This document shows, piece after piece, positions 8,773-40,107 of a stretch of DNA of 42,922 bases. Below the pieces are notes generated by a model. It was not told where the DNA came from. It saw only the letters and a list, made by a program, of their open reading frames with translations, and searched no databases. The position numbers and the translations under genes were made by a program. The stretch is from a virus. Lineage: Duplodnaviria; Heunggongvirae; Uroviricota; Caudoviricetes. Each line of letters opens with the position of its first letter. Within the stretch, counting starts at the first letter, position 1. The stretch is taken from the IMG/VR virus record IMGVR_UViG_2728369185_000014, one strand, 5' to 3'.

Positions 8773-9426
8773 TCACCCAAACGTCTCTTCAGGCCATTGG
8801 CTGGCGATAACTTTCCCCACAACGGAACAACTCTCATTGCATGGGATCATTGGGTATTGTGGGTTTAGTGGCTGTAGAAACACCTGACCGCTATCCCTGA
8901 TCAGTTTCTTGAAGGTAAATTCATCACCACCAAGTCTGGCTATGCAGAAATCGCCGGGCTCAACAGCTTGCTCAGGGTCAACCAGAATTAACATCCCGTC
9001 AGGAAAGCTGGGTTTGGAACCTGTTGGTGCGGTCATTGAGTTACCTTCAACCTCAAGCCAGAATGCAGAGTCACTGGCTTTTTTGGTTGTGCTTACCAAT
9101 CTCTCCGCATCGCCTTTGGTAAAGGTTCTGAGTTCTGGAGAGAACATCCCAGCCTGAACATGAGAAAAAACAGGGTACTCATATTGTTTTTTAACTGGGG
9201 CCGATGAGTATTCGCCAACAGGTGAAAATGTCCCGTCGTGGTTGAATGATATGTTATCAATACCAAGGTATTTAAACACCACACCAATATCACTAAGAGA
9301 TGGATGACGAGATCCGCGCAACCAGTGTCCAATCCCACCCTGCGTCATACCTAGCTCTTCGGCTAACTTCTCTTGAGTTATGCCGAGCTCTTTCATTCTG
9401 GATCTAGCCAGTTCATACCATTTCAT
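8773..9426 (-). CDS. cI: CI-type prophage repressor (S24 LexA-like peptidase domain)
   Basis: C-terminal ~130 aa match the lambda cI autocleavage/dimerisation domain (...[30 protein letters not shown]...WPEETFG); N-terminal HTH domain differs from lambda; start taken at the Met 7 nt after an AAGGA (9432 is an alternative). Confidence 0.85.
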
Positions 9427-9543
9427 TTTCATGTCCTTATTATTACGCTCTGTACTGGAACCATCCATGCACAATGTGTATTTTTACTTGTATTCGCAAA
9501 GTACATATTGTATTTTTTTATTCGTGTTTACTATGGAGGGCAT
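9427..9543. promoter_or_regulatory. cI-cro divergent promoter/operator region (oR-like)
   Basis: Intergenic region between divergent cI and cro, with palindromic elements (TACTTGTATTCGCAAAGTA; AAAGTACATATTGTA) and a GGAGGG ribosome-binding site before cro. Confidence 0.55.
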
Positions 9544-12290: not shown

Positions 12291-12300
12291 NNNNNNNNNN
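12291..12300. other. Assembly gap (10 N), probable scaffold join
   Basis: Run of n characters; the sequence on each side belongs to different parts of a phage map. Confidence 0.99.
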
Positions 12301-13661: not shown

Positions 13662-15188
13662 ATGAAAAAAGCCATAGCATATATGCGATTTTCATCACCA
13701 GGTCAGATGTCTGGCGACTCATTAAACCGACAGAGAAGACTTATTGCTGAATGGTTAAAGGTAAATAGTGATTATTATCTTGATACCATAACATATGAAG
13801 ATTTAGGATTAAGTGCATTCAAAGGAAAGCATGCACAATCAGGAGCTTTTTCGGAATTTTTAGATGCTATAGAGCATGGTTATATATTGCCAGGAACTAC
13901 ATTGTTAGTTGAAAGTCTGGACAGACTTTCAAGAGAAAAAGTCGGTGAAGCGATTGAGCGTCTGAAATTGATTTTGAATCACGGTATTGATGTTATAACT
14001 CTTTGCGATAATACAGTCTATAATATTGACTCTTTGAATGATCCATATTCATTAATAAAAGCCATACTTATAGCACAAAGGGCAAATGAAGAAAGCGAGA
14101 TAAAGTCAAGTCGGGTTAAATTATCATGGAAGAAAAAACGGCAGGATGCACTGGAGTCAGGCACGATTATGACGGCGTCTTGTCCGAGATGGCTCTCCTT
14201 AGATGACAAAAGAACGGCTTTTGTTCCAGACCCCGACAGGGTGAAAACTATTGAGCTAATTTTTAAACTCAGGATGGAAAGGCGCTCATTGAATGCAATA
14301 GCCAAGTATTTAAATGATCATGCTGTAAAGAATTTCTCAGGAAAAGAAAGTGCATGGGGACCTTCTGTAATTGAAAAATTATTAGCGAATAAAGCTCTGA
14401 TAGGTATATGCGTACCTTCATATCGTGCAAGAGGTAAAGGAATAAGTGAAATCGCTGGCTATTATCCCAGAATCATATCAGATGATTTGTTTTACGCTGT
14501 GCAGGAAATTCGGTTGGCACCTTTTGGTATTAGCAATAGTAGCAAAAATCCTATGTTGATAAATCTACTTCGAACAGTTATGAAGTGCGAGGCTTGTGGT
14601 AATACCATGATTGTTCATGCGGTATCTGGAAGTTTGCATGGCTATTATGTTTGTCCGATGAGAAGACTGCATCGATGTGACAGGCCATCAATAAAGAGAG
14701 ATTTGGTTGATTATAATATCATTAATGAGTTGCTTTTTAATTGTAGTAAAATCCAACCAGTTGAAAACAAGAAAGATGCTAATGAAACTTTAGAGTTGAA
14801 AATTATTGAGCTCCAGATGAAAATTAATAATTTAATTGCTGCATTATCTGTTGCGCCTGAAGTTACCGCTATAGCAGAAAAAATCAGAGTATTAGATAAG
14901 GAATTACGAAGGGCTTCTGTATCATTAAAAACTTTGAAGAGTAAAGCGGTGAGCTCACTTGGTGATTTTCATGCTATTGACTTAACCAGTAAAAATGGGC
15001 GAGAGCTATGTCGTACACTTGCCTATAAAACATTCGAAAAAATCATAATCAATACAGATAATAAAACCTGTGATATCTATTTTATGAATGGCATTGTTTT
15101 TAAACACTATCCTTTAATGAAAACAATATCCGCCCAGCAGGCGATAAGTACTCTCAAATATATGGTTGATGGTGAGGTTTATTTTTGA
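13662..15188 (+). CDS. ybcK: Large serine recombinase (YbcK-like)
   Basis: 508 aa; N-terminal resolvase-type catalytic region (AIAYMRFSSPGQ...) and a Cys-rich C-terminal extension; AT-rich. Confidence 0.8.
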   Translation: MKKAIAYMRFSSPGQMSGDSLNRQRRLIAEWLKVNSDYYLDTITYEDLGLSAFKGKHAQSGAFSEFLDAIEHGYILPGTTLLVESLDRLSREKVGEAIERLKLILNHGIDVITLCDNTVYNIDSLNDPYSLIKAILIAQRANEESEIKSSRVKLSWKKKRQDALESGTIMTASCPRWLSLDDKRTAFVPDPDRVKTIELIFKLRMERRSLNAIAKYLNDHAVKNFSGKESAWGPSVIEKLLANKALIGICVPSYRARGKGISEIAGYYPRIISDDLFYAVQEIRLAPFGISNSSKNPMLINLLRTVMKCEACGNTMIVHAVSGSLHGYYVCPMRRLHRCDRPSIKRDLVDYNIINELLFNCSKIQPVENKKDANETLELKIIELQMKINNLIAALSVAPEVTAIAEKIRVLDKELRRASVSLKTLKSKAVSSLGDFHAIDLTSKNGRELCRTLAYKTFEKIIINTDNKTCDIYFMNGIVFKHYPLMKTISAQQAISTLKYMVDGEVYF

Positions 15189-15299
15189 GTAATAATCACT
15201 TTTTCAACCGTGCTATAGTAAGAAAGTTAGGTAAGTACAATAAAATTATCTATCCTGAACGAAGCGTCCTGAGCTATGGTTTTACTATAGGGACTGCCA

Positions 15300-15617
15300 A
15301 TGGATGCTGGCGTTCTCGTTCTAGCAGTTCAACAATCCCCAATCACAAAACAATTCACTGATAACGAACTTTGCACACTCGCCTGGTTATGGCGAGCAGG
15401 GAATGTGATGTTAATTGCCTACCAGAACGTTACTCATCTTCTTCAGGATGCGGAGCATGGTGAAGCTGGTCACTTCACTTCCATCGAGCAAGAATATCCC
15501 CAGATACTCAACAGAGCGCGAGCAATCCTCGTCCGAGAAACGGCACATGTAAAACTTCAGCCGTGGCAGGATGATAAGTGGAGTCGAGTATTGCCGTATT
15601 TGCGTCAAATCTGTTAG
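15300..15617 (+). CDS. Hypothetical protein (105 aa)
   Basis: Track ORF only; no motif recognised; could be a gene remnant. Confidence 0.3.
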   Translation: MDAGVLVLAVQQSPITKQFTDNELCTLAWLWRAGNVMLIAYQNVTHLLQDAEHGEAGHFTSIEQEYPQILNRARAILVRETAHVKLQPWQDDKWSRVLPYLRQIC

Positions 15618-15821
15618 GAGTATAGCCGCCAGCCATGAGTGTTGTATTAAAACAAGGATGTCTATATATGGGATAGCGAGAGTATGAATATCAGTTATTT
15701 TGAGAGTTAACTGATTGTGAAATTAGTTTTTTTCACAAACGAGTGGGGTTACTATGATGAGTGTTCTAATGCATAGGGAACACCTAATTTTTTCAATGAA
15801 TTCAAATTGATAGGATCAAAA

Positions 15822-16751
15822 ATGGCACAACAGAGAACTACCTCCCTCAGATCCATACCTTTAGACTTAGATGTTAAGCAAGAGGCTGTCATTAACGGTA
15901 TAGAAATGGGGGTACTCGATAACGGAATTCCGTACCTTACTCAGAATGGGTTGGCAAATGTTTGTGGTGTTCAGCGTTTGCGAATCAAGGAAATTACCGA
16001 TGAGTGGGCTCAATCTGTTGAGAACGGTATTTTCAAAAAAGGAAGAATGACTTTTATTGGTACATATCTTCTTAATGAAGGTTTTACAGATGAAAAACTT
16101 TATATACCAATAATTCGAAATGGTGTTGAGTACCATGCTTATCCAGATGTTGTATGCATGGCTATACTTGAATACTATGCCTTTGAAGCAAAACAAGCAG
16201 AAAGTGAGACTGCAATTAGATCTTACAGAGAGCTTGCTAAAAAAGGCCTCAAGACATTTATATACGAGGCGCTAAAATATCAACCGGAGGACCCGTGGAG
16301 GCATTACCATGACAGAGTATCTTTATTAAAAGATAAGGGAACCATACCTGATGGGTATTTCATTATATTTAATGAAATTGCAGGTATGATGGTAGATCTC
16401 ATCAATGCTGGATTAGCGATTAATCAGCATACCGTACCTGATGGCAGTGTTGGTTCTTGCTGGGCGCGTCACTGGAAAGCAAAGGGGTTAGCAACAGAAT
16501 TTGGAGAAAGAGTAGACTGTGAGCATTATTACCCTGAAGATTTTCTTCAGGCAAGTTCCAATCCTCAGATCATTAATGCCTATCCTGATTCTGCATTGTC
16601 AGAGTTTCGTAGATGGTTTAAGCATGAATATTTAACCACAAAGTTCCCACCGTATATTCTTAAAAAATCAAACGTGCTTCCTGGTGGTACAGAAGATGCT
16701 AATCGTCTGATAGAAGCTTTCAAAAAATCAGAGCTAGAAAATAAACCATAA
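15822..16751 (+). CDS. Uncharacterised nin-region protein with a possible KilA-N/Bro-N-like N-terminal domain
   Basis: ~309-aa ORF from the ATG 6 nt after AGGA (the track ORF starts at an upstream TTG); N-terminal ...INGIEMGVLDNGIPYLTQNGLANVCGV... resembles phage KilA-N/Bro-N DNA-binding domains; AT-rich. Confidence 0.5.
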   Translation: MAQQRTTSLRSIPLDLDVKQEAVINGIEMGVLDNGIPYLTQNGLANVCGVQRLRIKEITDEWAQSVENGIFKKGRMTFIGTYLLNEGFTDEKLYIPIIRNGVEYHAYPDVVCMAILEYYAFEAKQAESETAIRSYRELAKKGLKTFIYEALKYQPEDPWRHYHDRVSLLKDKGTIPDGYFIIFNEIAGMMVDLINAGLAINQHTVPDGSVGSCWARHWKAKGLATEFGERVDCEHYYPEDFLQASSNPQIINAYPDSALSEFRRWFKHEYLTTKFPPYILKKSNVLPGGTEDANRLIEAFKKSELENKP

Positions 16752-16947
16752 TTGTTTTTTGGCTTTTGATTTTACATAATCATTTTGCCATAATCATGTC
16801 ATCGGAGCCTGAACAACTCCGGTGACTTCTGCGCTAAACGGGGACGTTTATGCGCACATACAATCCAAACTCTCTTCTCCCTTCACAGATGCAGAGATGC
16901 ACCTGCGATTTTTTGCATCCAGCGTTTGACCTCTGCGGAGGTGAAGC

Positions 16948-17403
16948 GTGAATCTCCCACAAGATGGCATCAAATTACATCGCGGTAACTTCACCGCTAT
17001 CGGTCGGCAGATCCAGCCTTATCTGGAGGAGGGCAAATGCTTTCGCATGGTGCTTAAACCGTGGCGTGAGAAACGCAGTCTTTCCCAGAATGCACTCAGC
17101 CACATGTGGTACAGCGAAATCAGTGAATACCTCATCAACAGGGGTAAAACGTTCGCCACTCCAGCTTGGGTAAAAGATGCTCTCAAACACACATATCTCG
17201 GTTATGAAACCAAAGACCTGGTTGATGTCGTAACCGGTGATATCACCACTATCCAGTCGTTACGCCATACCTCCGATCTTGATACCGGAGAGATGTATGT
17301 CTTCCTGTGTAAGGTTGAAGCCTGGGCGGTGAATATTGGCTGCCACCTGACTATTCCGCAGAGCTGCGAGTTCCAGCTGCTCCGTGACAAGCAGGAGGCG
17401 TAA
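16948..17403 (+). CDS. ybcN: YbcN-like nin-region protein
   Basis: 151-aa ORF (GTG start) matching the DLP12 YbcN family as I recall it. Confidence 0.75.
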
Positions 17404-18352: not shown

Positions 18353-18411
18353 AGTCAGAGATAACAATCAACTAATACTGTTTTGTTGATTTTTGCTTGT
18401 AATTGGCGTTC

Positions 18412-18421
18412 NNNNNNNNNN
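18412..18421. other. Assembly gap (10 N)
   Basis: Run of n characters between ylcG and Q. Confidence 0.99.
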
Positions 18422-18443
18422 CCTGATTTTGTGGAGAAAGTTG

Positions 18444-18800
18444 ATGCGTGATATGTATGAAGTAATGGATCGTTGGGGAGCTTGGGCTGCTTCAGACAAT
18501 AGCGGAGTGGACTGGCAGCCGATAGCGGCTGGTTTCAAGGGACTTTTACCTCATGGCAAAAAGTCACGGATTCAGTGTGATGATGACGAAGGCATCATGA
18601 TAGACAGTTGTGTGGCTCGGTTGAGAAGGTATAAACCAGAGGAATATGAGCTCATCATCGCCCACTTTGTTATCGGTATCTCATTACGCACTATTGCGAA
18701 GAAGAGAAAATGCTCTGATGGCACAATTAGGAAGGAACTGCAAACTGCAATGGGGTTTGTTGACGGCTGTTTAGCAATGTTAGCTTATAGTATGGCATAA
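18444..18800 (+). CDS. Q: Q-like late-gene antiterminator (short type)
   Basis: 118 aa MRDMYEVMDRWGAWAASDNSGVDWQPIAAGFKGLLP...; W-G-A-W-A motif and Cys cluster as in short Q/QuuD-type antiterminators; position after nin and before lysis genes. Confidence 0.7.
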   Translation: MRDMYEVMDRWGAWAASDNSGVDWQPIAAGFKGLLPHGKKSRIQCDDDEGIMIDSCVARLRRYKPEEYELIIAHFVIGISLRTIAKKRKCSDGTIRKELQTAMGFVDGCLAMLAYSMA

Positions 18801-19994
18801 AAAATAAAATAGATTTACTGCCGATTTTTCAAAAAAGACTGGGAACTGTTTATATCCAACGTAAATAAGGCCTCCATAAAACATGGCTGATGCGAGATAT
18901 TTAACAGTTCTCATCCTTTTTTTAGCTTTATCAATCAAACCTGTAATGCTACTCTTAATACTATCTGCATTATCTTTGATTTCTTTATTTTCTTCAAACT
19001 TTAAATACTTATCGAAAGCGGACTCCACTCGAGAACGTAAGTTGTCGAATGTTTCATTGAATATCTCAATAGAAATGTAATTGACTTTTTTTATCATCCA
19101 AAGTCCTGCGATAATCAATATTGCTTCGGTTGTTTCATTAGCCTTCACTAAGCCACCAGCTGCTATTAATGCACCGGGAATAGTCAATGCTTTTGTCTGA
19201 TTAGATGATATGAATTCGTTAATTTTACTCGTGAACTCAAGATTTTTCTCATCGAGTTCGTTAAGAATTTTATTTACAGAAAACCTCTTTGTGTAAATCT
19301 CATATAGTTCATCATATTTTTTCCTGACGAGTTCAGTAGAGTTAAGCAAGTCAAAGAAATTGAACGTACCATTTGCTTTAAATACTTCGTTTATGGCTGA
19401 GCGTATAACGAGCTTGCGCTCGCTTTTGTGTAAATCATTGATTTTTATTGTGTCGAGAAGCTCCTTTATAATTTCATATTTAAGAGACGAGTTCGATAAG
19501 CGATTAATCTCGCTATATTGTAAAAAATGCGTGAGTTCGACTGTATAACTTTTGTCTTCATTGGTGAAAAATAAGACAGAGCAGTCACTGTTATGATGAT
19601 CAGCAATTAATGAAAGGATATCTTTCCACATAAAGAAAATATGGATTTTTTCGATGCTTTCATTCTTAGAAGTAGGGAGTATTAACGGCGTTCCGATGAT
19701 ATAATTTTTCGGAAGAGCGTTTTGGGTGTTTACTCTAGACCAAAAAGACTCAACATTCTCATAAATTATAGCATCATCCCAAGATGAAGCTTGGCGATCT
19801 AGCCAAATTTCATTATTTTCGATGCAGGTTGTTGCCTTTTTATAACCTATAGATTGTAACAGTCTAATTATTTCAGAACTATTTACAATAACAATGCTTT
19901 CTTCAAGACTTATGACAGTGTAGTAGCCCTCAACTCTGCTTGAGGCTCCGTTAATAATCTGCGCTAATCTTGATAAGTCATCAGCAATTGTCAT
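18780..19994 (-). CDS. Uncharacterised protein with C-terminal transmembrane helices (404 aa), second gene of the Q-S cassette
   Basis: AT-rich ORF; hydrophobic segments near the C-terminus (ALTIPGALIAAGGLV, AILIIAGLWMI, YLASAMFYGGLIYVGY); its 3' end overlaps the Q 3' end convergently. Confidence 0.55.
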   Translation of the reverse strand: MTIADDLSRLAQIINGASSRVEGYYTVISLEESIVIVNSSEIIRLLQSIGYKKATTCIENNEIWLDRQASSWDDAIIYENVESFWSRVNTQNALPKNYIIGTPLILPTSKNESIEKIHIFFMWKDILSLIADHHNSDCSVLFFTNEDKSYTVELTHFLQYSEINRLSNSSLKYEIIKELLDTIKINDLHKSERKLVIRSAINEVFKANGTFNFFDLLNSTELVRKKYDELYEIYTKRFSVNKILNELDEKNLEFTSKINEFISSNQTKALTIPGALIAAGGLVKANETTEAILIIAGLWMIKKVNYISIEIFNETFDNLRSRVESAFDKYLKFEENKEIKDNADSIKSSITGLIDKAKKRMRTVKYLASAMFYGGLIYVGYKQFPVFFEKSAVNLFYFLCHTIS

Positions 19995-19996: not shown

Positions 19997-21172
19997 TTAG
20001 CTGTCTCTATATCTTTTGAGTTCATCATAATTTGCCTGACTCAATTTTATCACAATTTCGCATTTGTTGTCAGTGAGAATTACAGGCTTATTTGACTTTT
20101 CGTCTCCAATAGCTCCACGCATTATTTTCAACTTAAAATTATTGTCGTTATCTGCCACTTCAATTGTAAGCGCGCTTTCAGCTGCTTTAGGAGTTGGTTC
20201 AAATTGAGGGTCAATCTGGAAACCATTAAGATTAACAAAATCGACAAACGTTCCCTTACATTTGTGTGAATCAGTCAGGCATGAGTCAATTATTTTTGAA
20301 ATATCCTCTATCTTAACGGACTTATTTCCGTGTTTATCTTTTGATTTTTTTTCCAGTAAGGATTTAACTTCATTGTCAATAGTATCACGCAGTACACGAC
20401 CGAGTGAGTTTTTACTAGCAAAAATATCTATAGCACTGAATAATTGCTGAATGCTTCTTTTATTGTCCGAATCATGTCGGCAACCTAATGAGTCTTTGAA
20501 AAAATCGCTTTTAGATTTACCTTGCAAGAAATGTACATATGAGTCACCCTTGTTTTCTGGATAACTGGCTTCGAATAAAGTTAAATCGAACATCGCAGCC
20601 TGCCGTAAGGCATCGGTATTAATTGGATTTAATCTTGTTGGGGTCAACTTATCCGAATCAAAGTCATAGGCGCTTTGTTTATCAACCATTACGATTAGAA
20701 GTTTCCCCAAATCCTCTGGTTCGGTAGACTTATAGTGGATGAAAACAACGCTCCCCCCCTGAAGTTGGGCAACTCTCGATTCGTTATTAGCATTATGTTT
20801 AAGCTTCTCTATTATAGCTCTAGATAAATCAATGAATTCATTATTCTTATTAATGTATTTTTTTAGGATCGTAGGAATGGATGAAGGGTTGTGATCTGAG
20901 TCTAGGAAGTTATGAAATTTGTTTTTTCGGCTAAATTTTTTCTCAATTCTGGTTATGAATTCAGATGTGACTTCATTTTTTAGATCCCAAACTTCACCTA
21001 ATCGATAATCAAATGCTCTTGAATCATTTTTTTCAAGATTTGCTGTTACAGCACCAATAGGAAAGTACGATTGTTTGCCCAGCACTACAACATGAGGCGT
21101 GGCACCGCATTTATCGCAAGCTACAGTTGGGTCGTCAAGAACATTGCCACATTCTAAACAAGTTATATCCAT
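19997..21172 (-). CDS. Zinc-ribbon protein with a possible NdpA/YejK-like nucleoid-associated domain (391 aa), first gene of the Q-S cassette
   Basis: N-terminal CxxC...CxxC (CLECGNVLDDPTVACDKCG); central ...GGSVVFIHY...YVHFLQGKSKSDFF... resembles the YejK/NdpA family as I recall it; 2-nt gap to the downstream ORF. Confidence 0.55.
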   Translation of the reverse strand: MDITCLECGNVLDDPTVACDKCGATPHVVVLGKQSYFPIGAVTANLEKNDSRAFDYRLGEVWDLKNEVTSEFITRIEKKFSRKNKFHNFLDSDHNPSSIPTILKKYINKNNEFIDLSRAIIEKLKHNANNESRVAQLQGGSVVFIHYKSTEPEDLGKLLIVMVDKQSAYDFDSDKLTPTRLNPINTDALRQAAMFDLTLFEASYPENKGDSYVHFLQGKSKSDFFKDSLGCRHDSDNKRSIQQLFSAIDIFASKNSLGRVLRDTIDNEVKSLLEKKSKDKHGNKSVKIEDISKIIDSCLTDSHKCKGTFVDFVNLNGFQIDPQFEPTPKAAESALTIEVADNDNNFKLKIMRGAIGDEKSNKPVILTDNKCEIVIKLSQANYDELKRYRDS

Positions 21173-23040: not shown

Positions 23041-23192
23041 NNNNNNNNNNNNNNNNNNNNNNNNNNNNNNNNNNNNNNNNNNNNNNNNNNNNNNNNNNNN
23101 NNNNNNNNNNNNNNNNNNNNNNNNNNNNNNNNNNNNNNNNNNNNNNNNNNNNNNNNNNNNNNNNNNNNNNNNNNNNNNNNNNNNNNNNNNNN
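23041..23192. other. Assembly gap (~152 N)
   Basis: Run of n characters; the lower boundary may be 23040. Confidence 0.95.
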
Positions 23193-29956: not shown

Positions 29957-29982
29957 AAAGGCCGCCTGTGCGGCTTTTTTTA
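29957..29982 (+). terminator. Hairpin plus T-tract between D and E
   Basis: GGCCGCCTGTGCGGC followed by TTTTTTT; placed by hand. Confidence 0.5.
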
Positions 29983-29994
29983 CGGGATTTTTTT

Positions 29995-30239
29995 ATGTCG
30001 ATGTACACAACCGCCCAGCTGCTGGCGGCAAATGAGCAGAAATTTAAGTTTGATCCGCTGTTTCTGCGTCTCTTTTTCCGTGAGAGCTATCCCTTCACCA
30101 CGGAGAAAGTCTATCTCTCACAAATTCCGGGGCTGGTAAACATGGCGCTGTACGTTTCGCCGATTGTTTCCGGTGAGGTTATCCGCTCCCGTGGCGGCTC
30201 CACCTCTGAATTTACGCCGGGATATGTCAAGCCGAAGCA
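29995..30239 (+). pseudogene. E: Major capsid protein E, 5' fragment (codons 1-82) cut by an insertion
   Basis: MSMYTTAQLLAANEQKFKFDPLFLRLFF...TPGYVKPKH matches the lambda E N-terminus, then diverges into 9 unrelated codons and a stop at 30270. Confidence 0.9.
30230..30239 (+). repeat. Left copy of a 10-bp direct repeat AGCCGAAGCA (putative att core)
   Basis: The same 10-mer is at the right junction (41118..41127); both copies lie exactly where E homology is lost and regained; placed by hand. Confidence 0.7.
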
Positions 30240-30402
30240 CTTAGCATGGCTTTCTGAGGCTTTCGTGTAGTTGCTGGTTTTTACACTTAATCTTTTGATA
30301 ATAAAGAATAAGTTTATCTGGTGCTTTCACTGAATTTTCCTCGTTATCTGTGTGTTGCAATCATCTCTGTATTGCAGCTTGTATTGCTTTTTGGGGCTAA
30401 AA

Positions 30403-31638
30403 ATGGCTGGCGAGAACAAACTGAGCGACAAAGCGCTTAAAGGATATCTGGGGAAACCCAGAGAAAAGCAGATCACCATTGCTGATGGAAAGGGGCTTTC
30501 TATTCGTGTGAGTACTAAAGGGGCTGTGAGCTTTGTTTTCTTCTACAGGTTAGCAGGTGGCCGGGCTGCTCCGGTCTGGCTAACGTTGGGTAAATATCCT
30601 GATATGTCACTCAAACAGGCAAGGGAAAAGCGCGACGAGTGCCGTGGTTGGTTGGCTGACAAACGTGATCCGCGTATCCAGATTAAGATTCAGGCTGAAG
30701 AACGCTTAAAGCCGGTCACTGTGGAGGATGCACTAAATTACTGGTATGAAAATTACTGTAAGGTGCGTCGTAAAACTCATGCTGTAACGCTTGGCAGATT
30801 TCGAAAGCATATCTTTCCCTATATCGGTCATTTGCCCGTAAATGACACTCACCTATATGAATGGCTGGACTGTTTTGACCGAATTAAACGTAATGCACCA
30901 GTTATGGCGGCGTATGTTTTTTCTGACACTAAATTAGCTCTTCGTTTTTGTCGGGTACGCCAGTACGCGACGTGTGATGCTTTAAAGGATTTGCGCATGA
31001 GTGATGTGGGGCAGATTGCAGGTAAGCGGGATCGGGTTCTGGATGAAGCCGAACTCGGCCAGCTCTGGAAGGCAATTTTTGTCGAGCCTGATTTAAAACT
31101 AATGTCTGAATACACGCGAAAAATGTTTGTGCTTTGTACAGTATTTGGATGTCGAATGAGTGAAGCCCGATTATCAGAATGGAGCGAATGGGATCTCGAA
31201 AGTTGGGTTTGGACTGTACCAAAAGATCACTCAAAAACTGGTGTTGAAATCGTCAGACCAGTACCTGAAATTCTACGACAGTGGGTAACGGATGTTCACG
31301 AAGAGACAAAACATACTGGTTATGTGCTGGGAAGTCTGCGAATTAGAGAAAGCGTAAGCAAGATTGGGGGGAAAATCGGTAAACGTTTGGGCCATGAAAA
31401 ACAATGGTCACTACACGACCTTAGAAGAACGCTATCTACTCATCTAAGTGATCTCGGTGTTGAATTTTATGTAGTAGAACAACTGTTAGGCCATGCGCTA
31501 CCTGGCGTGGCAGGTGTTTACAACCGGAGTAAGTTTATGGCTAAAAAACTGGATGCTCTGGAACTCTGGACTACATATCTCAATAGCATCGCAGGTGCTG
31601 ATTCAAAAGTGACAATCCTCAAACAAAAGGTTGGTTAA
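30403..31638 (+). CDS. int: Tyrosine integrase (P4-family type) of the inserted element
   Basis: 411 aa from the internal ATG; N-terminal arm-binding-type region and a C-terminal ...HDLRRT...LLGH...GVYNRS region typical of tyrosine recombinases; first gene inside the left junction. Confidence 0.85.
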   Translation: MAGENKLSDKALKGYLGKPREKQITIADGKGLSIRVSTKGAVSFVFFYRLAGGRAAPVWLTLGKYPDMSLKQAREKRDECRGWLADKRDPRIQIKIQAEERLKPVTVEDALNYWYENYCKVRRKTHAVTLGRFRKHIFPYIGHLPVNDTHLYEWLDCFDRIKRNAPVMAAYVFSDTKLALRFCRVRQYATCDALKDLRMSDVGQIAGKRDRVLDEAELGQLWKAIFVEPDLKLMSEYTRKMFVLCTVFGCRMSEARLSEWSEWDLESWVWTVPKDHSKTGVEIVRPVPEILRQWVTDVHEETKHTGYVLGSLRIRESVSKIGGKIGKRLGHEKQWSLHDLRRTLSTHLSDLGVEFYVVEQLLGHALPGVAGVYNRSKFMAKKLDALELWTTYLNSIAGADSKVTILKQKVG

Positions 31639-31639
31639 C

Positions 31640-31867
31640 ATGAAAAAAATGGCAATTGTTGATAAAAAGGGTCTGGAGTACATTCCTAACATTGACCGAA
31701 TGATCCGTGAGAAAGAATGTCGGGAGCTAACCACTCTTGCGAACAGCACACGCTGGAAGCTGGAGAAGGAAGGAAAATTTCCTAAGCGGATCAAGATTGG
31801 TTCCACTGCTGTTGCATATCGTCTTTCAGAAGTGCAGGCATGGATTCGAGGTGAGTGGGTAGTTTAA
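31640..31867 (+). CDS. alpA: AlpA-family transcriptional regulator/excisionase
   Basis: 75 aa starting 2 nt after the int stop; ...RELTTLANSTRWKLEKEGKFPKRIKIGSTAVAYRLSEVQAWI... fits the AlpA/Vis winged-helix family. Confidence 0.7.
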   Translation: MKKMAIVDKKGLEYIPNIDRMIREKECRELTTLANSTRWKLEKEGKFPKRIKIGSTAVAYRLSEVQAWIRGEWVV

Positions 31868-31936
31868 ATTATCTCAGAATAAAATATTATGAATTACTGA
31901 TTTGAGAATTTGTACTCAAATCAGTAATAACATTCT

Positions 31937-32473
31937 TTATAAGAGATTAAATCCAAATAAAGAGTAATCATATACCGGGGTGCATTGCATTCCACTGAAT
32001 ATGCTGATGTTTTTTTCTGTTTCTATCCTTTTTTCAATAAGTTGTTGTATATTTTTACAGTACAATTTGTGTGTGATGTTATTATCGTAAGCCTGATATA
32101 GCAACGTCAATGTTGACGCTAGGAAACATACAGATAAAATTAAAGTAACATATGCGGTTTTTTTATTTTTTGTCCATGATCTATTTGTTTGTGAAATATA
32201 AAGAATTCTGATGTGGATAATGGTGAGAGACAATAGCAGGCCACTCAATAAAATAAGTATTGGGTTTGCGTATTTTATTAATGGTTGAGAGCAAAAAACT
32301 ATTATAGCTCCTGTGACTGCGTATGAGAAAAAGGAGTAATTAAACTTCTTACTCCTTCTCTCAAGTATTTTAATTTCATCTTGTGTGGGGGTTTTAGATG
32401 CCTCTAATATAAGTTTATTGAATGTTTCTGTTATCTTGTTTTTTGTGTTTGTGGCTATTTTTTTTAGATTCAT
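31937..32473 (-). CDS. Accessory membrane protein (178 aa, about three TM helices)
   Basis: Very AT-rich ORF with hydrophobic segments (AVTGAIIVFCSQPLI, ILILLSGLLLSLTIIHI, YVTLILSVCFLASTLTLL); no homologue recognised. Confidence 0.5.
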   Translation of the reverse strand: MNLKKIATNTKNKITETFNKLILEASKTPTQDEIKILERRSKKFNYSFFSYAVTGAIIVFCSQPLIKYANPILILLSGLLLSLTIIHIRILYISQTNRSWTKNKKTAYVTLILSVCFLASTLTLLYQAYDNNITHKLYCKNIQQLIEKRIETEKNISIFSGMQCTPVYDYSLFGFNLL

Positions 32474-32823
32474 AGCATTCTAACTCCCTTAACTTATTTA
32501 TTACTTTCTCTTTATGATAAGAGAGGGGAATGACTTGGTAAAGTGATTTGTCATTAATAATGATAATCCTTGCGATAAATATTTCTGCAAGTTATTTATC
32601 TGTTTGTTGCTATCTTGTTAAGCGTTGGGTGTGGTTTATGTTTGGAGCGACTTTATTTAATCGTGATTTTATGGATTTATATTTATATCCTGTAAGATAA
32701 GCGCATGTTAGTTCAGGAGTAGTGTCAGATAAAATTATTCGGAGTAGAACTACCTTTTCTGTTTATTGCCAGTATTTACATAGCAATGCGCCGTAGTTAC
32801 TCACATCACGGCGCTGATACTAA

Positions 32824-33126
32824 TTATTCAGATTCTTTGGCTTTACGCCGCTGGAGTTCTTCACGAGCGACGGCTACGAGTTGCCCGATTTCCTCCGCTG
32901 CCTTGATGCCGATTTGTTCGACCTTAGCTAAGGCATCCAGTGAAGACACGAGGGGATTTTCTCCGCTTCCTTCTGCCTGGCGGCGGGCGATCTCACCGCG
33001 CATGGCGGTTACTATGAATCCGGCGTTGCTCTCGCCGTCCAGTTTTACGGATTCCATGCCCTCCATAACATCGTGGGGAACCCTGATCGTTGTCATTTGC
33101 GATTTTGCATTTTTGTATACAGACAT
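32824..33126 (-). CDS. Ribbon-helix-helix-type DNA-binding protein (100 aa)
   Basis: N-terminal ...MTTIRVPHDVMEGMESVKLDGESNAGFIVTAMR... has the pattern of CopG/Arc-type RHH domains; divergent from the rightward operon. Confidence 0.5.
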   Translation of the reverse strand: MSVYKNAKSQMTTIRVPHDVMEGMESVKLDGESNAGFIVTAMRGEIARRQAEGSGENPLVSSLDALAKVEQIGIKAAEEIGQLVAVAREELQRRKAKESE

Positions 33127-33334
33127 AGTTAATCACCAATTTGTTATGTGTATATCACTATACACAAAAGTGATATATAAAAACACTTGCAATGTATATC
33201 ACCACAATATAATGTATATCTCACATTATGGTCGCTATGTATCTCACAATGATCGATTCATAAAAACGACGAAACCCGGCAGTGCGCGAACACTAACCGG
33301 GCTTCTAACCAAACCGTTAAACGAGGTAACGATT
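33127..33334. promoter_or_regulatory. Divergent promoter region with TGTATATCAC/GTGATATA repeats
   Basis: AT-rich intergenic segment with at least four copies of TGTATATC(A/T)C in both orientations, between the RHH gene and the rightward operon. Confidence 0.45.
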
Positions 33335-33700
33335 ATGGCTGGAACACAGCATACCCAAACTCACCCTAAATTTATATACACCTTTCTGGCACTACACCAC
33401 GACCGCATGGCAGATGGAGCAACTACGGTACATGTAGCCGCTGACACGCTGGTTGATGCCCGCAAGATGGTTAAGGAGATGGGCTATACTGCGGCTTTCT
33501 GGAAAGGGCGTGAAGAAAACACGCTGTTTATTCAGAAATGCGAAAACAATTTCATCTGGCGTTTTATCGCCCTGAGTACGGCACAACCGCGCGTGATTCA
33601 CATCGTGGCCACCAGCGAACAGGAAGCCCGCCAGCAATCCCCGGCTGGTTGCGTGAGGGTATTCGCCGCCCGTATTCGTCAGGAGGTATGCCGTGCTTAA
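33335..33700 (+). CDS. Hypothetical protein (121 aa), first gene of the island rightward operon
   Basis: Internal ATG of the long track ORF; the upstream part of that ORF is antisense to the RHH gene. Confidence 0.45.
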   Translation: MAGTQHTQTHPKFIYTFLALHHDRMADGATTVHVAADTLVDARKMVKEMGYTAAFWKGREENTLFIQKCENNFIWRFIALSTAQPRVIHIVATSEQEARQQSPAGCVRVFAARIRQEVCRA

Positions 33701-33878
33701 AACCTTCCGTGTATTTGCCCGAGCGGTTAACCCACGAGGCCACACAATTGGTATCACTCAGAACGTGAAGGCTGTTAATGTTCAGACGGCTATTGCTGTG
33801 GTGAGAAGCGAATCATCAGAATATGGCTTATCACAAGTCATTATTTCAGCAGTGTATGAATTAAAAGAGGTGCATTAA
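33693..33878 (+). CDS. Hypothetical small protein (61 aa)
   Basis: Track ORF overlapping the previous stop; same operon. Confidence 0.4.
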   Translation: MLKTFRVFARAVNPRGHTIGITQNVKAVNVQTAIAVVRSESSEYGLSQVIISAVYELKEVH

Positions 33879-34069
33879 TGCAGGAAATTACATTACACGA
33901 AGCCGCTGAACGTGCGCACCAGACAGAAATTATTTGCCGCCTTCTTGAGGTATACCCGAACAAAATTACAGATGCTGATATATCCGCACTGGCGAGCCTA
34001 CTGGCGCGTCTTTCGGGAAGTGTCGCTAGTTTTTTGATTGAGGAAGAAAGTAAGCTGGTGGGGGATTAA
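33878..34069 (+). CDS. Hypothetical small protein (63 aa)
   Basis: Track ORF with stop/start overlap to its neighbours. Confidence 0.4.
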   Translation: MQEITLHEAAERAHQTEIICRLLEVYPNKITDADISALASLLARLSGSVASFLIEEESKLVGD

Positions 34070-34291
34070 ATGAATACAGAACGGGAAGTCTTTTTTAAAT
34101 TGTTAGCATGTGCAGAAAGTTCATTAACTTTAAATAATTCAGCAAAAGCAATATTAAATATGTGGCTTGATTGCATAAATGACAATGAAGATGCAAATAT
34201 TGCTTATGGCCTGTTGTCACTTATTGATGAAGCAGCAGAAAAACTCAATGACGCAATAAATAGTGCCCTGTTATCAAATAAGTCGAGTTAA
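34070..34291 (+). CDS. Hypothetical small protein (73 aa)
   Basis: Track ORF, AT-rich, contiguous in the operon. Confidence 0.4.
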   Translation: MNTEREVFFKLLACAESSLTLNNSAKAILNMWLDCINDNEDANIAYGLLSLIDEAAEKLNDAINSALLSNKSS

Positions 34292-34308
34292 GTCGAGGAA
34301 TAAATAAT

Positions 34309-34608
34309 ATGGAAATGAAAAATTCTGGCTTTATTGCCAGCGGCCCCGCTCGGCCTGAATTTATGAACGGCGATATTTACCGCGATAAATACGGCGGCAC
34401 GGTAACGATTAAAGGCGTGGCAGAACGGCGCATCACTTACCGCCGTGAGGGGTATAGCTATGACTGCGTGATGCCTGTTTATCAGTTCCGGCGTGATTTT
34501 TCCCTGGTATATGCCGCACCTCGCAGTAAGCCCACCAGCAGGGAAAAAGCGCGGGGAAACATCCAGAAAATGAAAAGCATGATTAACGCATTCAGGGGCA
34601 AAAAATGA
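34309..34608 (+). CDS. Hypothetical basic protein (99 aa)
   Basis: Track ORF whose stop overlaps the primase start. Confidence 0.4.
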   Translation: MEMKNSGFIASGPARPEFMNGDIYRDKYGGTVTIKGVAERRITYRREGYSYDCVMPVYQFRRDFSLVYAAPRSKPTSREKARGNIQKMKSMINAFRGKK

Positions 34609-36356
34609 AACTGGCACCGAACTTAAAAAAACAGCCACGCGACAGACTGACAGAGGTAATCATCTTTGCAGGTAGTGATGCGTGGAGCCATGCGAAAGAG
34701 TGGCAGGAATGGGCGGGTAAACATATTGCCGCCGACGATGTGCCGCCTGTCGTGCTGGCTGATGAGCAACTGAAAAACATCATCGATTACCGGATCATTG
34801 ATGAAGATCGTCAGTGTGTGCGTGTTTACCGCGCAGGACATATCACAGAGCACAGCATGACGCAGATTGTTACGTTACTGGCTGTGGCTGGAGTGAAGAC
34901 CGTACACGAATACGCGGGGATTACTGACACCAGCCCCGTGGATTTATCCGACCAGTTGCCGCGACTCAAAGAGGAATGCGAGCGTGGGGAAAGTCTGGTG
35001 CTTAATCTTCCGACGAAGCAAAAGGCGCAACTTTCACAGATGGCAGACAGTGAACGTGCACAACTACTTGCCGATCGCTTTGATGGTGTGTGTGTTCATG
35101 CAGAAAGTGAAATCGTCCACGTATGGCGCGGCGGGGTATGGTGTCCGGTCAGCACAATGGAGCTGAGCCGCGAAATGGTGGCGATCTATTCAGAGCACAG
35201 GGCCACGTTCAGCAAACGTGTAATCAATAACGCCGTGGAAGCGTTAAAAGTTATTGCCGACCCCATGGGGGAGCCGTCCGGTGATTTACTACCGTTCACT
35301 AATGGTGTGCTTAACCTGAAAACGGGGGATTTTTCTCCGCACTTACCGGAGCACTGGAGCACCACGCACAATGGCATTGAGTACACGCCACCAGTAGCAG
35401 GGGAAAACATCCGCGATAATGCGCCAAATTTCCATAAATGGCTTGAACATGCTGCAGGAAAAGACCCGCGCAAGATGATGCGTATATGTGCCGCGTTATA
35501 CATGATTATGGCGAACCGCTACGACTGGCAGATGTTCATTGAGGCCACCGGAGACGGGGGAAGCGGTAAGAGTACATTTACCCATATTGCCACCCTGCTT
35601 GCTGGCAAACAGAACACCGTAAGCGCAGAGATGACATCACTCGATGATGCAGGAGGGCGCGCGCAGGTTGTCGGGAGTCGTCTTATCGTCCTTGCCGATC
35701 AGCTGAAATATACGGGGGAAGGCACGGGCATCAAGAAAATCACGGGAGGCGATCCCGTTGAAATTAACCCGAAATATGAGAAGCGATTCACGACGATAAT
35801 AAGGGCGGTGGTACTGGCAACCAATAACGACCCGATGATCTTTACCGAACGGGCCGGAGGTGTGTCACGCCGTCGGGTGATTTTCCGGTTCGACAACATT
35901 GTAAGGGAGGACGAAAAAGACAAGGAATTACCGGAAAAGATAGCGGCAGAAATCCCCGTAATTATCCGCCGCTTGCTGGCTAATTTTGCTGACCCTGAAA
36001 AGGCACGGGCTTTATTACTGGAACAGCGTGACGGTGATGAAGCTCTGGCAATAAAGCAGCAAACGGATCCGGTTGTTGAGCTTTGCGCGGCGCTGGAGTT
36101 TCTGGAGGAAGCTCGTGGGCTAATGATGGGCGGTGGTGGTGACACCGTGAAGTACACGACCAGAAACAGCCTTTACCGTGTCTATATGGCCTTCATGGCA
36201 TATACAGGAAAGGGGAAATGTTTGAGCGTGAATGAGTTCGGAAAGGCTATGAGGTCAGCGGCGAAAGTTTACGGATATGAATATATTACGCGAAAAGTTA
36301 AGGGAGTCACGCAGACCAACGCAACGACTACTGATGATTGCGATGCGTTTTTATAA
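34605..36356 (+). CDS. Primase-helicase (P4-alpha/D5-type NTPase)
   Basis: 583 aa with Walker A GDGGSGKST and downstream helicase-like motifs; immediately followed by an iteron array. Confidence 0.8.
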   Translation: MKLAPNLKKQPRDRLTEVIIFAGSDAWSHAKEWQEWAGKHIAADDVPPVVLADEQLKNIIDYRIIDEDRQCVRVYRAGHITEHSMTQIVTLLAVAGVKTVHEYAGITDTSPVDLSDQLPRLKEECERGESLVLNLPTKQKAQLSQMADSERAQLLADRFDGVCVHAESEIVHVWRGGVWCPVSTMELSREMVAIYSEHRATFSKRVINNAVEALKVIADPMGEPSGDLLPFTNGVLNLKTGDFSPHLPEHWSTTHNGIEYTPPVAGENIRDNAPNFHKWLEHAAGKDPRKMMRICAALYMIMANRYDWQMFIEATGDGGSGKSTFTHIATLLAGKQNTVSAEMTSLDDAGGRAQVVGSRLIVLADQLKYTGEGTGIKKITGGDPVEINPKYEKRFTTIIRAVVLATNNDPMIFTERAGGVSRRRVIFRFDNIVREDEKDKELPEKIAAEIPVIIRRLLANFADPEKARALLLEQRDGDEALAIKQQTDPVVELCAALEFLEEARGLMMGGGGDTVKYTTRNSLYRVYMAFMAYTGKGKCLSVNEFGKAMRSAAKVYGYEYITRKVKGVTQTNATTTDDCDAFL

Positions 36357-36364
36357 AAAATGGC

Positions 36365-36615
36365 AATGGTTATCTACCTTGTCTACCTGACTGAAATAAA
36401 ATACTTTTATTTCAATGTATTAATGCAGGTAGATAACTATTTTTCACTGTCTACCTGTTATCTACCTTATCTACCCATTTTTGTAGACAGGTAAGGAGAC
36501 GGGTAGAGATGAGGTAGACAGCTATTTGGGGCTGTCTACCTCCCTGAAACCCGCGCCATTACTGGCCTGATAACTAATCAGGTAGACAAGGTAGACAAGG
36601 TGGTGGTGCACAAAA
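36365..36615. repeat. Iteron array (GGTAGACA/TGTCTACC, at least 10 copies) with an AT-rich spacer: putative island origin
   Basis: Repeated 8-9-mers in both orientations (TTGTCTACC, AGGTAGATA, CAGGTAGACAAGGTAGACAAGG...) flanking an A/T-rich segment directly after the primase gene. Confidence 0.7.
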
Positions 36616-36645
36616 AACTTTTTAAACGAGGGGGTAAAAATAAAA

Positions 36646-36888
36646 ATGCACACATCAGGAAAACTGAACAAACATATAAAGCCACATTACCGCGCCCTTG
36701 ATATGGCTGAACACTGGCTAAGGGTGGCGATTAAGGCAATAGACCGCAACGCCGGGGAAGGATACGCGAAAGCACATCCCGAACTGATAAGCGCATTCAT
36801 GACAACGGCGGCTGCAAACTTTGCCACGCTGACCGAACGGGAGATTGCCGAAGCGGAGGAAGTGACAACCATCAATATTAAGTCCTGA
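36646..36888 (+). CDS. Hypothetical protein (80 aa)
   Basis: Track ORF between the origin and ssb. Confidence 0.35.
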   Translation: MHTSGKLNKHIKPHYRALDMAEHWLRVAIKAIDRNAGEGYAKAHPELISAFMTTAAANFATLTEREIAEAEEVTTINIKS

Positions 36889-36899
36889 GAGCAGGCAGC

Positions 36900-37349
36900 A
36901 TGACGGCGCAAATAGCAGCTTACGGGCGGCTGGTGGACGACCCACAGGTAAAACATACCAGCAAGGGAACACCCATGACACTGGCACGGATGGCGGTATC
37001 TTTGCCATGCAGCCAGGCAGATGACGGAACGGCGACGATGTGGTTATCTGTGCTGGCGTTTGGCAGACAAGCCGACGCGCTGGCAAAGCATCACAAAGGC
37101 GAACTCCTGAGCGTGGCGGGTAATATGCAGGTGAGCCAGTGGAGCGGACAGAACGGGGAAACGCGGCAGGGCTGGCAGGTTATCGCAGACAGCGTAATCA
37201 GTGCCAGAACGGTGCGACCGGGCGGCAAAAAAGGTCAACAGGGGCAGGCTACTGATGCACTGAACAGAGCAAAACAACAGGCAGATCAGCAAGGAAGCCA
37301 TCCACCAGTGGGAGATAATGAGCAATGGGGAGATGATATTCCGTTTTAA
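36900..37349 (+). CDS. ssb: Single-stranded DNA-binding protein
   Basis: 149 aa with an OB-fold-like N-terminal region, a Gly/Gln-rich linker and the acidic C-terminal tail ...DDIPF characteristic of bacterial/phage SSB. Confidence 0.75.
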   Translation: MTAQIAAYGRLVDDPQVKHTSKGTPMTLARMAVSLPCSQADDGTATMWLSVLAFGRQADALAKHHKGELLSVAGNMQVSQWSGQNGETRQGWQVIADSVISARTVRPGGKKGQQGQATDALNRAKQQADQQGSHPPVGDNEQWGDDIPF

Positions 37350-37565
37350 ATATTGCCAATAAAAAAGGCCGGAAAAAATATATTTTCCGGCATGCTACAT
37401 AAATCCCGACCAAAGGGAGTGAAGATATTAACACTAATTATCCGCGCTGAAGTTGTCATCCCAAAACTTTATACAACATTGCACTCGGTTGCATGTGTTA
37501 GCATGACAAATATCGGTGATAGCATATATCCACAATTATTTTTAATGAATGTAAAGAGGATGAGT

Positions 37566-38606
37566 ATGGTTGATTTATATTCGCCTGCCCAGCTTGTGCA
37601 GGTGGCTAATGCAGAAGAGGTGCAAAAAAAATTAAATGCATTGTTTACCAGTTTGTTTTTCACTCGCTCGGTAATGTTTGAATCAAGAGACATTATTCTT
37701 GATACAATCGACGATCCAAATATCCCAATTGCAGCGTTTTGTTCTCCTATGGTGGGTAGTAAAGTTTCACGTGACGAAGGGTACGAATCAAAGACAATTC
37801 GTCCAGGCTATATGAAGCCGAAAAGCAGCATTGATCCAAATAAGTTAGCTGTGCGCCCTGCTGGTGTATCACCTGAGCAATACAATGCTTTTGGAGCGCG
37901 TAATATTAAAGTTAAACAGGCGATTGTAAATCAGGCTAAAGCTATTCGTGCACGTATTGAATGGCTTGCCGTTCAGGCAATCACAACGGGGAAAAATATC
38001 ATTGAGGGCGATGGCATTGAACGCTATGAACTGGACTGGAATATAAAACCACAAAATATTATCACGCAGTCCGGCGGTGCTGAGTGGTCAGGTAAGGATA
38101 AAGAAACTTTTGATCCAAATGATGATATTGAGAGCTACGCAGAATTTAGTGAGGGCGTCACTAATATCATCATTATGGGCGGTAATGTATGGAAGAAATA
38201 CCGTTCATTCAGAGCGATAAAAGAGGCTCTGGATACCCGTCGTGGTTCTAATTCCGAACTGGAAACGGCCCTTAAAGACCTTGGTGATTCGGTGAGTTTT
38301 AAAGGGTATATGGGCGATGTTGCGATTGTTGTATACAGCGGGCGTTATACCGACGAGGACGGAACTGAAAAACATTTCCTTGATCCTGATTTGATGGTGC
38401 TTGGCAATACGGCTCTTCAGGGGATTGTCGCCTATGGCGGTATTCAGGATCCGGAGCTAATCCGAATGGGGCTGACTAAAGCCGAACTTGCACCGAAAAA
38501 CTATATTGTGCCTGGTGATCCGGCTATTGAATATGTGCAGACACATTCAGCACCACAGCCAATACCGGCCCGCATCAATCGTTTTGTTACCGTTCGCATT
38601 GGCTAA
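37566..38606 (+). CDS. Major capsid protein homologue (lambda E-like)
   Basis: Alignable to lambda E along its length (e.g. ITQSGGAEWSGKDKETFDPNDDIESYA vs ITQSGGTEWSKRDKSTYDPTDDIEAYA; DTRRGSNSELETALKDLG vs DTRRGSHSELETAVKDLG; GDVAIVVYSG); start at the ATG 6 nt after AAGAGG. Confidence 0.8.
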   Translation: MVDLYSPAQLVQVANAEEVQKKLNALFTSLFFTRSVMFESRDIILDTIDDPNIPIAAFCSPMVGSKVSRDEGYESKTIRPGYMKPKSSIDPNKLAVRPAGVSPEQYNAFGARNIKVKQAIVNQAKAIRARIEWLAVQAITTGKNIIEGDGIERYELDWNIKPQNIITQSGGAEWSGKDKETFDPNDDIESYAEFSEGVTNIIIMGGNVWKKYRSFRAIKEALDTRRGSNSELETALKDLGDSVSFKGYMGDVAIVVYSGRYTDEDGTEKHFLDPDLMVLGNTALQGIVAYGGIQDPELIRMGLTKAELAPKNYIVPGDPAIEYVQTHSAPQPIPARINRFVTVRIG

Positions 38607-38615
38607 GGGGGAGCA

Positions 38616-38957
38616 ATGGCTACTCATTACACTGAACTCATGGCTGGCACTGAAGCACTGGTGACTACGCTGGGGATATTTTCAGCTAATAAAGGGGTAA
38701 TTCCTGCATTTACGCCACTGATGCAGGAAGATGCAACAGGTGCACTGGTGGTATGGGATGGTTCGAGCGTAGGTAAAGCGGTTTATGTTTCCGCTGTACA
38801 AATCGACACCGCGAAAAAAACACAGGCTCAGGTCTATAAGACAGGTGTCTTAAATGTTGATGCTCTGAACTGGCCTGAGTCTGTAAAAGAACTGTCAGTA
38901 AAGATTGCAGCGTTTGTTGGCTCAGGTATTTCTGTTCAGCCGCTGGCTCGTGTGTAA
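38616..38957 (+). CDS. Head decoration protein homologue (lambda D-like)
   Basis: 113 aa; ...VVWDGSSVGKAVYVSAVQ...AFVGSGISV parallels lambda D ...[18 protein letters not shown]...[10 protein letters not shown]; directly downstream of the capsid homologue, as D precedes E in lambda. Confidence 0.65.
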   Translation: MATHYTELMAGTEALVTTLGIFSANKGVIPAFTPLMQEDATGALVVWDGSSVGKAVYVSAVQIDTAKKTQAQVYKTGVLNVDALNWPESVKELSVKIAAFVGSGISVQPLARV

Positions 38958-38968
38958 AGGGGGATACA

Positions 38969-39352: not shown

Positions 39353-39379
39353 TGAAATTAGGGCCCGTTCTGGCTGGCG

Positions 39380-39445: not shown

Positions 39446-39568
39446 TTTTTAGGGGACTGGTGGTGGTTTTGTTGTTCGCTATATCTGTATGAATAATAAG
39501 AGAAAAACACAATCAACACACCAACCTGAAACAGTAATTAAGTTGTGGTATCAATGAAATTGCACCTG

Positions 39569-40096: not shown

Positions 40097-40107
40097 CGTA
40101 GTACGCT

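Follow-up and report, generated by a model that had tools for sequence, protein, structure and literature searches.

The subject of this report is a gene of a lambda-like prophage, located at 15822-16751 on the plus strand of a 42,922-nucleotide stretch of viral DNA (Caudoviricetes; IMG/VR record IMGVR_UViG_2728369185_000014), hereafter the window. Its product almost certainly belongs to the BstA family, judging from sequence matches that run from end to end, and the gene very probably represents BstA abortive-infection cargo carried in the nin region of a DLP12-type lambda-like prophage. That this allele itself confers abortive-infection defence is likely, by homology with BstA proteins that have been tested. 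The gene as such adds nothing new biologically; what may matter more is an allele-specific direct repeat of fixed spacing at its 5' end, a candidate for the self-immunity element (aba) of the system.

Identity of the gene

The likeness to BstA covers the whole protein. PHROG 6287, 'BstA abortive infection system', is matched at full length (E 1.9e-136), residues 10-313 of a 314-amino-acid form (see below) aligning with 2-303 of the 304 profile positions, and PADLOC's BstA model is matched at E 3.8e-121. A translated search of phage genomes found the BstA protein of Salmonella phage BTP1, which is 40% identical at 99% query coverage; identity is 38% to the BstA-Ec-like protein WP_000026554.1 of E. 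coli 2012C-4431 and 37.8% to a Klebsiella-phage homologue. The family PF26567 (BstA_C) stands in the precomputed annotation of this exact protein and of its homologues, and the product name given by the Prokaryotic Genome Annotation Pipeline (PGAP) is 'BstA C-terminal domain-containing protein'. Every residue invariant across 60 aligned homologues is kept in the window protein, and most of the invariant BstA residues sit in the C-terminal half. A preliminary description of this DNA, made from its letters, had pointed to an abortive-infection family of this architecture; in light of the end-to-end profile matches and the identity to BstA-BTP1, that family is BstA. The gene and its domains are as follows.

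15822-16751, plus strand: bstA homologue, 309 amino acids, WP_000068668.1 (PHROG 6287, PADLOC BstA, identity to BTP1, PF26567)
15873-16271, plus strand: N-terminal domain, residues ~18-150, beta-hairpin plus helices, putative KilA-N-like DNA-binding domain
16299-16727, plus strand: C-terminal domain BstA_C (PF26567, precomputed), residues ~160-302, a fold without a solved relative

The open reading frame (ORF) ends at 16751 and encodes 314 amino acids from a TTG at 15807, or 309 from an ATG at 15822. An AGGA Shine-Dalgarno sequence lies 6 nt 5' of that ATG, the 309-residue form is the one annotated in RefSeq/PGAP, and the database cluster representative is also 309 residues long. The BstA family comprises 1,250 database matches, and the stretch 15190-16950 is found at a coverage of at least 80% in 108 of 5,426 complete E. 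coli genomes, with the cassette at least 99% identical and the ORF intact. Because of these homologues and this shared cassette, the 309-residue gene is to be regarded as real and not as a chance ORF. The label 'hypothetical protein' is attached to it in 27 of the 30 RefSeq records listed, the other three, of newer annotation, reading 'BstA C-terminal domain-containing protein'; the former can be renamed as a BstA-family abortive-infection gene.

The gene was already known: it is catalogued in PADLOC, PHROGs, Pfam (PF26567) and current PGAP, and its prophage type and site have been reported. E. coli NCTC8623 encodes the identical protein, WP_000068668.1, at 4556999-4557928, and Table S1 of the original BstA study has an entry 'NCTC8623 LR134234 4557005-4557922' (Owen et al. 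2021, PMC8585504). Since the NCTC8623 gene span contains that entry, the protein was already in the original set of 72 homologues, outside the three that were tested. Abortive-infection defence has been shown for the alleles of BTP1, K. pneumoniae Kp52.145 and E. coli NCTC10963; the other tested alleles are 41.7-48.4% identical to BstA-BTP1, yet all defend (PMC8585504). With the tested alleles equally divergent, the divergence of the window protein lies within the functional range of BstA.

Identity of the window gene with BstA-Ec itself was considered and rejected, since the match for BstA-Ec is 897 nt as against 930 nt here, the Ec-like protein is only 38% identical, and the cloning primer of BstA-Ec is not in the window. 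The BstA-Ec gene adjoins a LexA-family repressor.

Domain layout

An AlphaFold2 model built with 60 homologues is confident (mean predicted local distance difference test score, pLDDT, 85) and has two domains, with residues 1-14 disordered. In BstA-BTP1, residues 32-147 were termed 'KilA-N (-like)' by remote homology, and a separate C-terminal domain was recognized (PMC8585504). The Pfam profiles KilA-N, Bro-N, ORF6N and P63C matched none of 60 BstA family members at E<=10, the window protein gave no KilA-N (PF04383) or Bro-N (PF02498) match at E<=1 in Pfam and none in NCBIfam, and faint helix-turn-helix matches were the sole outcome of the Pfam scans for N-terminal domain types. A profile sequence search of PDB with the BstA family returned no match, and Foldseek returned none below E 0.08 against PDB; against viral models (BFVD) it gave weak matches that include antirepressors, Bro and KilA-N proteins.

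We take the N-terminal half to be a small domain of the DNA-binding type, with a topology like that of KilA-N, whose place in the KilA-N family itself is conjectural. Because the Pfam profiles are negative and the fold searches weak, the 'KilA-N' label is insecure, though the BstA assignment is secure. The KilA-N/Bro-N-type N-terminus of the preliminary description can be retained insofar as the BstA family has been described as 'KilA-N (-like)', and has to be given up as a match to any of the four profiles.

A candidate aba element

In BTP1, aba spans 63 bp, from -29 to +34 of bstA (Owen et al. 2021, PMC8585504). The element acts as DNA without transcription, is allele-specific and needs high copy number in trans, and a single base change in either of its terminal CCCGCC repeats inactivates it (PMC8585504).

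When the window locus was compared with four relatives (74-86% protein identity), AGGGAACACCCTA was the sole conserved block in the upstream DNA, the rest being unalignable; in the window this block is copy 1 below. The repeat pair of the window was found only through this comparison and comprises the following two copies.

15776-15787, plus strand: copy 1 of the candidate aba repeat, GGGAACACCTAA, in non-coding DNA 46 nt before the ATG
15833-15844, plus strand: copy 2 of the candidate aba repeat, GAGAACTACCTC, inside bstA codons 4-8

Four of the five loci keep the copies at a spacing of exactly 57 bp, and the offset of the start codon between them varies by locus. In the fifth locus (L088) copy 2 falls below the search threshold, and a weaker 57-bp repeat (8/10) is present. 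By eye, the window copies match at 10 of 11 positions if a 1-nt gap is allowed. The window shows no sequence similarity to BTP1 aba beyond their common architecture, in which the terminal CCCGCC repeats of the BTP1 element have the same position and spacing as the window copies. On the strength of this arrangement, the segment 15776-15844 (~70 bp), an imperfect direct repeat across the start codon, is tentatively put forward as a working aba of this allele, at a likelihood we place slightly below even.

Two adjacent perfect 8-bp inverted repeats, ATCAGTTA-10-TAACTGAT and TTGTGAAA-8-TTTCACAA, occupy 15690-15738 in the AT-rich DNA upstream of bstA, just before a promoter-like site that is considered below.

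A repeat of fixed spacing across the BstA family

BstA loci were sampled from 80 species genomes and from phages (L005-L092); the 80 genome loci retrieved are mostly from Proteobacteria, with a few assigned to other phyla. Eighty-five non-redundant loci were anchored at the codon aligned to Gly30, and in each the 5' end was scored for its best direct repeat of 10 nt. This best repeat was spaced 56 or 57 bp in 64% of the 85 loci, as against 3-9% at four control offsets. When repeats matching at least 9/10 were considered, 37.5 of 44 loci (ties shared) had the 56/57-bp spacing, compared with 0-2 in the controls. The method recovers the BTP1 aba repeats, at a spacing of 56, and the Ec-like and Kp-like loci have repeats spaced 57, ATCCCTAC/ATCCCTGC and TGGTCATC/TGGTCACC, respectively. 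A GC-rich core is common to the repeats and the sequences differ between loci; a perfect 12-mer match was seen in 17% of within-locus comparisons versus 1% of between-locus comparisons. No description of the family-wide repeat was found in the BstA paper, its preprint and supplements or the later literature found, a search that most subscription journals lay outside.

These figures are consistent with a general proposal, which we hold with doubt a little ahead of belief: most BstA genes would carry an allele-specific pair of repeats spaced 56-57 bp at the 5' end, BTP1 aba being one instance, and the copies would be the half-sites that BstA reads. A repeat copy may be non-coding in short forms of the gene and may lie inside an N-terminal extension in long forms, and the DLP12-type allele of the window possibly has a degenerate pair, decaying with its interrupted prophage. 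If the proposal is true, the cognate self-immunity code would be readable from genome sequence for hundreds of alleles. How aba DNA turns BstA off and what sets the specificity were left open in the original study (Owen et al. 2021, PMC8585504). The repeat makes both mechanism and specificity directly testable, and this testable aba prediction is the main value of the analysis.

The locus and its prophage

The bstA gene is located between the large serine recombinase gene ybcK (13662-15188) and ybcN (16948-17403). The preliminary description had placed two ORFs there, one of 105 amino acids and an AT-rich one of ~309, and its account was borne out in coordinates, base composition and flanks, the GC fraction being 0.35-0.42 over 15600-16800 versus ~0.50 in ybcN and the genes beyond. 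In an identical locus annotated by PGAP, the right-hand neighbours are, in order, ybcN, ninE, ybcO, rusA, ylcG and Q. Homology to the DLP12 prophage of K-12 ends at 15227 and restarts at 16764, window positions 15228-16763 standing in place of ybcL-ybcM. The features of the locus are listed here.

13662-15188, plus strand: ybcK, large serine recombinase, left flank (Pfam Resolvase, Recombinase and Zn_ribbon_recom; containing block 96.9% identical to K-12)
15300-15617, plus strand: 105-amino-acid ORF with the P22 antirepressor C-terminal domain alone (Pfam P22_AR_C, PHROG 7640)
15616-16764, plus strand: bstA module as swapped between strains, made up of a 206-bp upstream region, bstA and 13 bp past the stop
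16850-16951: ylcH-like ORF, 33 amino acids, just before ybcN
16948-17403, plus strand: ybcN, first gene of the conserved nin module, right flank (PGAP; 95.9% identity to K-12)

The limits of the module were drawn from loci L004, L085, L086 and L087; relative to strains with other cargo in the same slot there are sharp homology breakpoints at 15615/15616 and 16764/16765. The slot, between the P22_AR_C ORF and the ylcH-like ORF, is a site of cargo exchange that holds, depending on the strain, bstA, a 169-residue hypothetical protein, a 260-residue hypothetical protein, or a HEPN protein with a partner. In K-12 the slot cargo is ybcL-ybcM, with the left breakpoint at 15227/15228. The other cargos of this slot may be defence genes too.

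The window gene sits in a lambda-like prophage with integrase, repressor, O/P, nin, Q, lysis and terminase functions. Strain PK12 has an identical cassette, borne there by a complete lambda-like prophage that lies beside tRNA-Arg (argU) and fimZ and carries intD, and this is the DLP12 site; a tRNA search of the window found none, and the attachment site was identified from PK12. E. coli bstA in lambda-like prophages at the tRNA-Arg hotspot has been reported before (Hochhauser et al. 2023, PMC10121019), and the gene can no longer be called unusual cargo, as the preliminary description had it.

The 105-amino-acid ORF

The ORF that precedes the module, taken from the ORF list of the window, matches P22_AR_C (PF10548) over residues 15-85 of its 105 (E 7.7e-14; 52 bits versus a cut-off of 22.4) and PHROG 7640 (E 1.7e-69), and it aligns to the C-terminal parts of Ant PHROG profiles; the domain scan found no N-terminal antirepressor domain (Ant, Bro-N or Rha) in it. 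Its DNA segment is matched in 838 E. coli genomes, just 107 of which cover most of a query that extended into the bstA-specific upstream region. The ORF is a pseudogene in NCTC8623 and O104:H4 and has a 202-residue form in EH031, and it is followed elsewhere by other cargo: the 169-residue protein (O104:H4), the 260-residue protein (YPE12), or the HEPN protein and partner (EH031). At the sampled BstA loci outside E. coli it was not found, apart from one marginal 51-residue match (E 0.003).

A role for this ORF as a conserved BstA partner or antitoxin was rejected on account of the other cargo, the pseudogenes and the absence from the sampled loci outside E. coli, the one marginal match notwithstanding. 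Given the breakpoint at 15615/15616, bstA and its 206-bp upstream region form the exchanged unit, and the ORF belongs to the flank. It is probably a remnant or a stand-alone nin-region gene, outside the BstA system.

Other features of the prophage

Relative to PK12, the window prophage has a 10.9-kb insertion (30240-41117) inside its major capsid gene. The halves of the gene are at 29968-30270 and 41132-41908, and on the PK12 sequence, which is uninterrupted, the two flanks share 10 bp. The insertion encodes an integrase, a repressor-like protein, a primase, a single-stranded DNA-binding protein, a major capsid protein, a head decoration protein, an AlpA-type excisionase/regulator and a small terminase; it looks like a capsid-forming phage satellite, and the same arrangement is present in 17 complete E. 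coli genomes.

Two minus-strand genes (18780-19994 and 19997-21172), placed between Q and the holin gene, are those of the DS-1 system, which originates from the DefensePredictor study. The NCBIfam matches are DS1_2_antiphage (E 2.8e-112) and the DS1_1 nucleoid-associated anti-phage protein (E 2.1e-135); PK12 annotates the DS1_1 gene as two separate coding sequences. With bstA and the two-gene DS-1 system in one element, the prophage is therefore a multi-defence one. Masked runs of N occur at 2660-2771, 12291-12300, 18412-18421 and 23041-23192, one of them within the 5' portion of the ORF listed for the Q antiterminator (18393-18800), another past the lysis genes.

Proposed action, expression and alternatives

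From the three BstA proteins that have been tested, we infer by homology that BstA would be made in the lysogen from a promoter of its own. Once an unrelated phage infects, BstA would localise to the invader's DNA as it replicates and stop that replication; the cell would then lyse without progeny, whereby the population and the prophage would be protected. If the resident prophage is itself induced, the cognate BstA would be counteracted by aba, which lies at the 5' end of bstA, the repeats probably being two half-sites bound by the N-terminal DNA-binding domain. The gene needs its own promoter because it is not beside the repressor, and a consensus scan offers one candidate.

15730-15758, plus strand: sigma-70 promoter-like site TTTTCA-17-TATGAT, possible bstA promoter (9/12 matches)

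Several observations weigh against this reading. BstA genes usually follow the repressor and share its promoter, whereas this one is in the nin region, with the prophage repressor (8773-9474) ~6 kb away. Adjacency to the repressor is common, not universal (PMC8585504). Promoter-like sites in the region are as frequent as expected from shuffled sequence, and the proposed promoter is only a weak consensus match. The window repeat copies match at 7/10 positions, compared with 8/10 in the relatives and perfect 12-mers in 14 loci, which places the window allele among the weaker examples of the repeat, and when the surroundings of the start codon were searched with exact seeds, no direct repeat of at least 6 nt turned up. 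The major capsid gene is interrupted, which may have eased selection on self-immunity in this prophage. The Pfam profiles do not bear out the KilA-N assignment. In the family at large, an open frame spans both copies in 34 of the 42 strongly repeated loci, and the repeated peptide of the long forms makes a protein-level constraint possible at those loci.

The last of these points bears on the alternative that survives best, namely that the 57-bp repeat is not a self-immunity site and is instead an autoregulation operator, or the DNA image of a peptide repeat in the disordered tail of long forms. Long-form homologues (342-345 amino acids) have a conserved N-terminal extension (IEPIDADFDDVV...) that holds both copies, where each copy encodes one (S/T)PA(T/P), the two peptides being 19 residues apart. 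An operator would be in keeping with copy 1 of the window's clade, which is near-palindromic by eye (TAGGG-N4-CCCTA in L089), as in many operators. A peptide repeat accords poorly with the 56-bp spacing of many loci, which is out of frame, and with copy 1 being non-coding in the window, BTP1, Ec-like and Kp-like loci. Nor does it fit codon usage in the long forms, where identical residues of both copies share the same codon in 97 of 114 cases versus 40.9 expected, a figure that is biased upward because the loci were chosen on nucleotide match. Both versions, operator and peptide, are countered by the same architecture in BTP1, where it is the experimentally defined aba, a DNA element independent of transcription and abolished by single-base changes. 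We consider this alternative unlikely.

In lambdoid prophages the nin region is silent until induction, when it is transcribed from pR. The gene might accordingly be a silent or decaying passenger, its intact ORF unexpressed in the lysogen or its self-immunity site degenerated, and would then serve no present function in this strain; its nin-region position, the weak promoter evidence, repeats that are degenerate next to those of the relatives and the interrupted capsid gene all lean that way. Set against this are the intact ORF, at least 99% identical in 108 genomes of which some have a complete prophage, and the retention of all residues invariant among the 60 homologues. Moreover, the module keeps its own 206-bp upstream region across recombination breakpoints, and the same region is occupied in the K-12 DLP12 prophage by the cargo genes emrE, ybcL and ybcM. 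On balance, a passenger is improbable.

It is scarcely credible that the protein is a transcription-type prophage regulator (antirepressor or KilA-like) acting with the upstream antirepressor-domain ORF and not in defence: its N-terminal domain does resemble small DNA-binding domains, with the weak BFVD matches noted above, and the neighbouring ORF does have a P22 antirepressor C-terminal domain, but the whole protein, C-terminal half included, matches BstA and no antirepressor family, so that the clear antirepressor homology contemplated in the preliminary description did not emerge, and the neighbour keeps company mostly with other cargo, is sometimes a pseudogene and is absent from the sampled BstA loci of other species but for one marginal match.

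Comparison with known systems

BstA-BTP1 is a full-length, prophage-borne homologue of the window protein, with two domains that meet near residue 155, and it too has a short direct repeat ~56-57 bp apart across the start codon. The window gene differs in its position, in the nin region between ybcK and ybcN and not downstream of the cI repressor, in its need for a promoter of its own, and in its repeat, which is of different sequence and imperfect. BstA-Ec (E. coli NCTC10963) and BstA-Kp (Kp52.145) are other alleles of the same family, with genes beside the prophage repressor. The Ec-like (2012C-4431) and Klebsiella-phage homologue loci have a 57-bp-spaced repeat, as does the window; that the repeat sequences differ among the window, Ec-like and Kp-like alleles is expected, because immunity is cognate.

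More distant likenesses concern parts of the locus. The KilA-N/Bro-N/APSES domains (Iyer et al. 2002; Pfam PF04383, PF02498) are likewise small N-terminal domains of a beta-hairpin and helices, and in fold the N-terminal domain of the window protein weakly resembles the Mbp1 APSES domain and a baculovirus N-terminal domain. P22 Ant and the 105-amino-acid ORF have the C-terminal domain in common, the window ORF being without the N-terminal antirepressor domain; unlike P22 Ant, the ORF is often a pseudogene, and it has no linkage to BstA outside this E. coli cassette. RexAB of phage lambda is comparable as a type of cargo, being an abortive-infection system that a prophage encodes in a mosaic hotspot of its lambdoid genome. 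It differs in its unrelated proteins, its mechanism (membrane depolarisation) and its position (the cI-N region).

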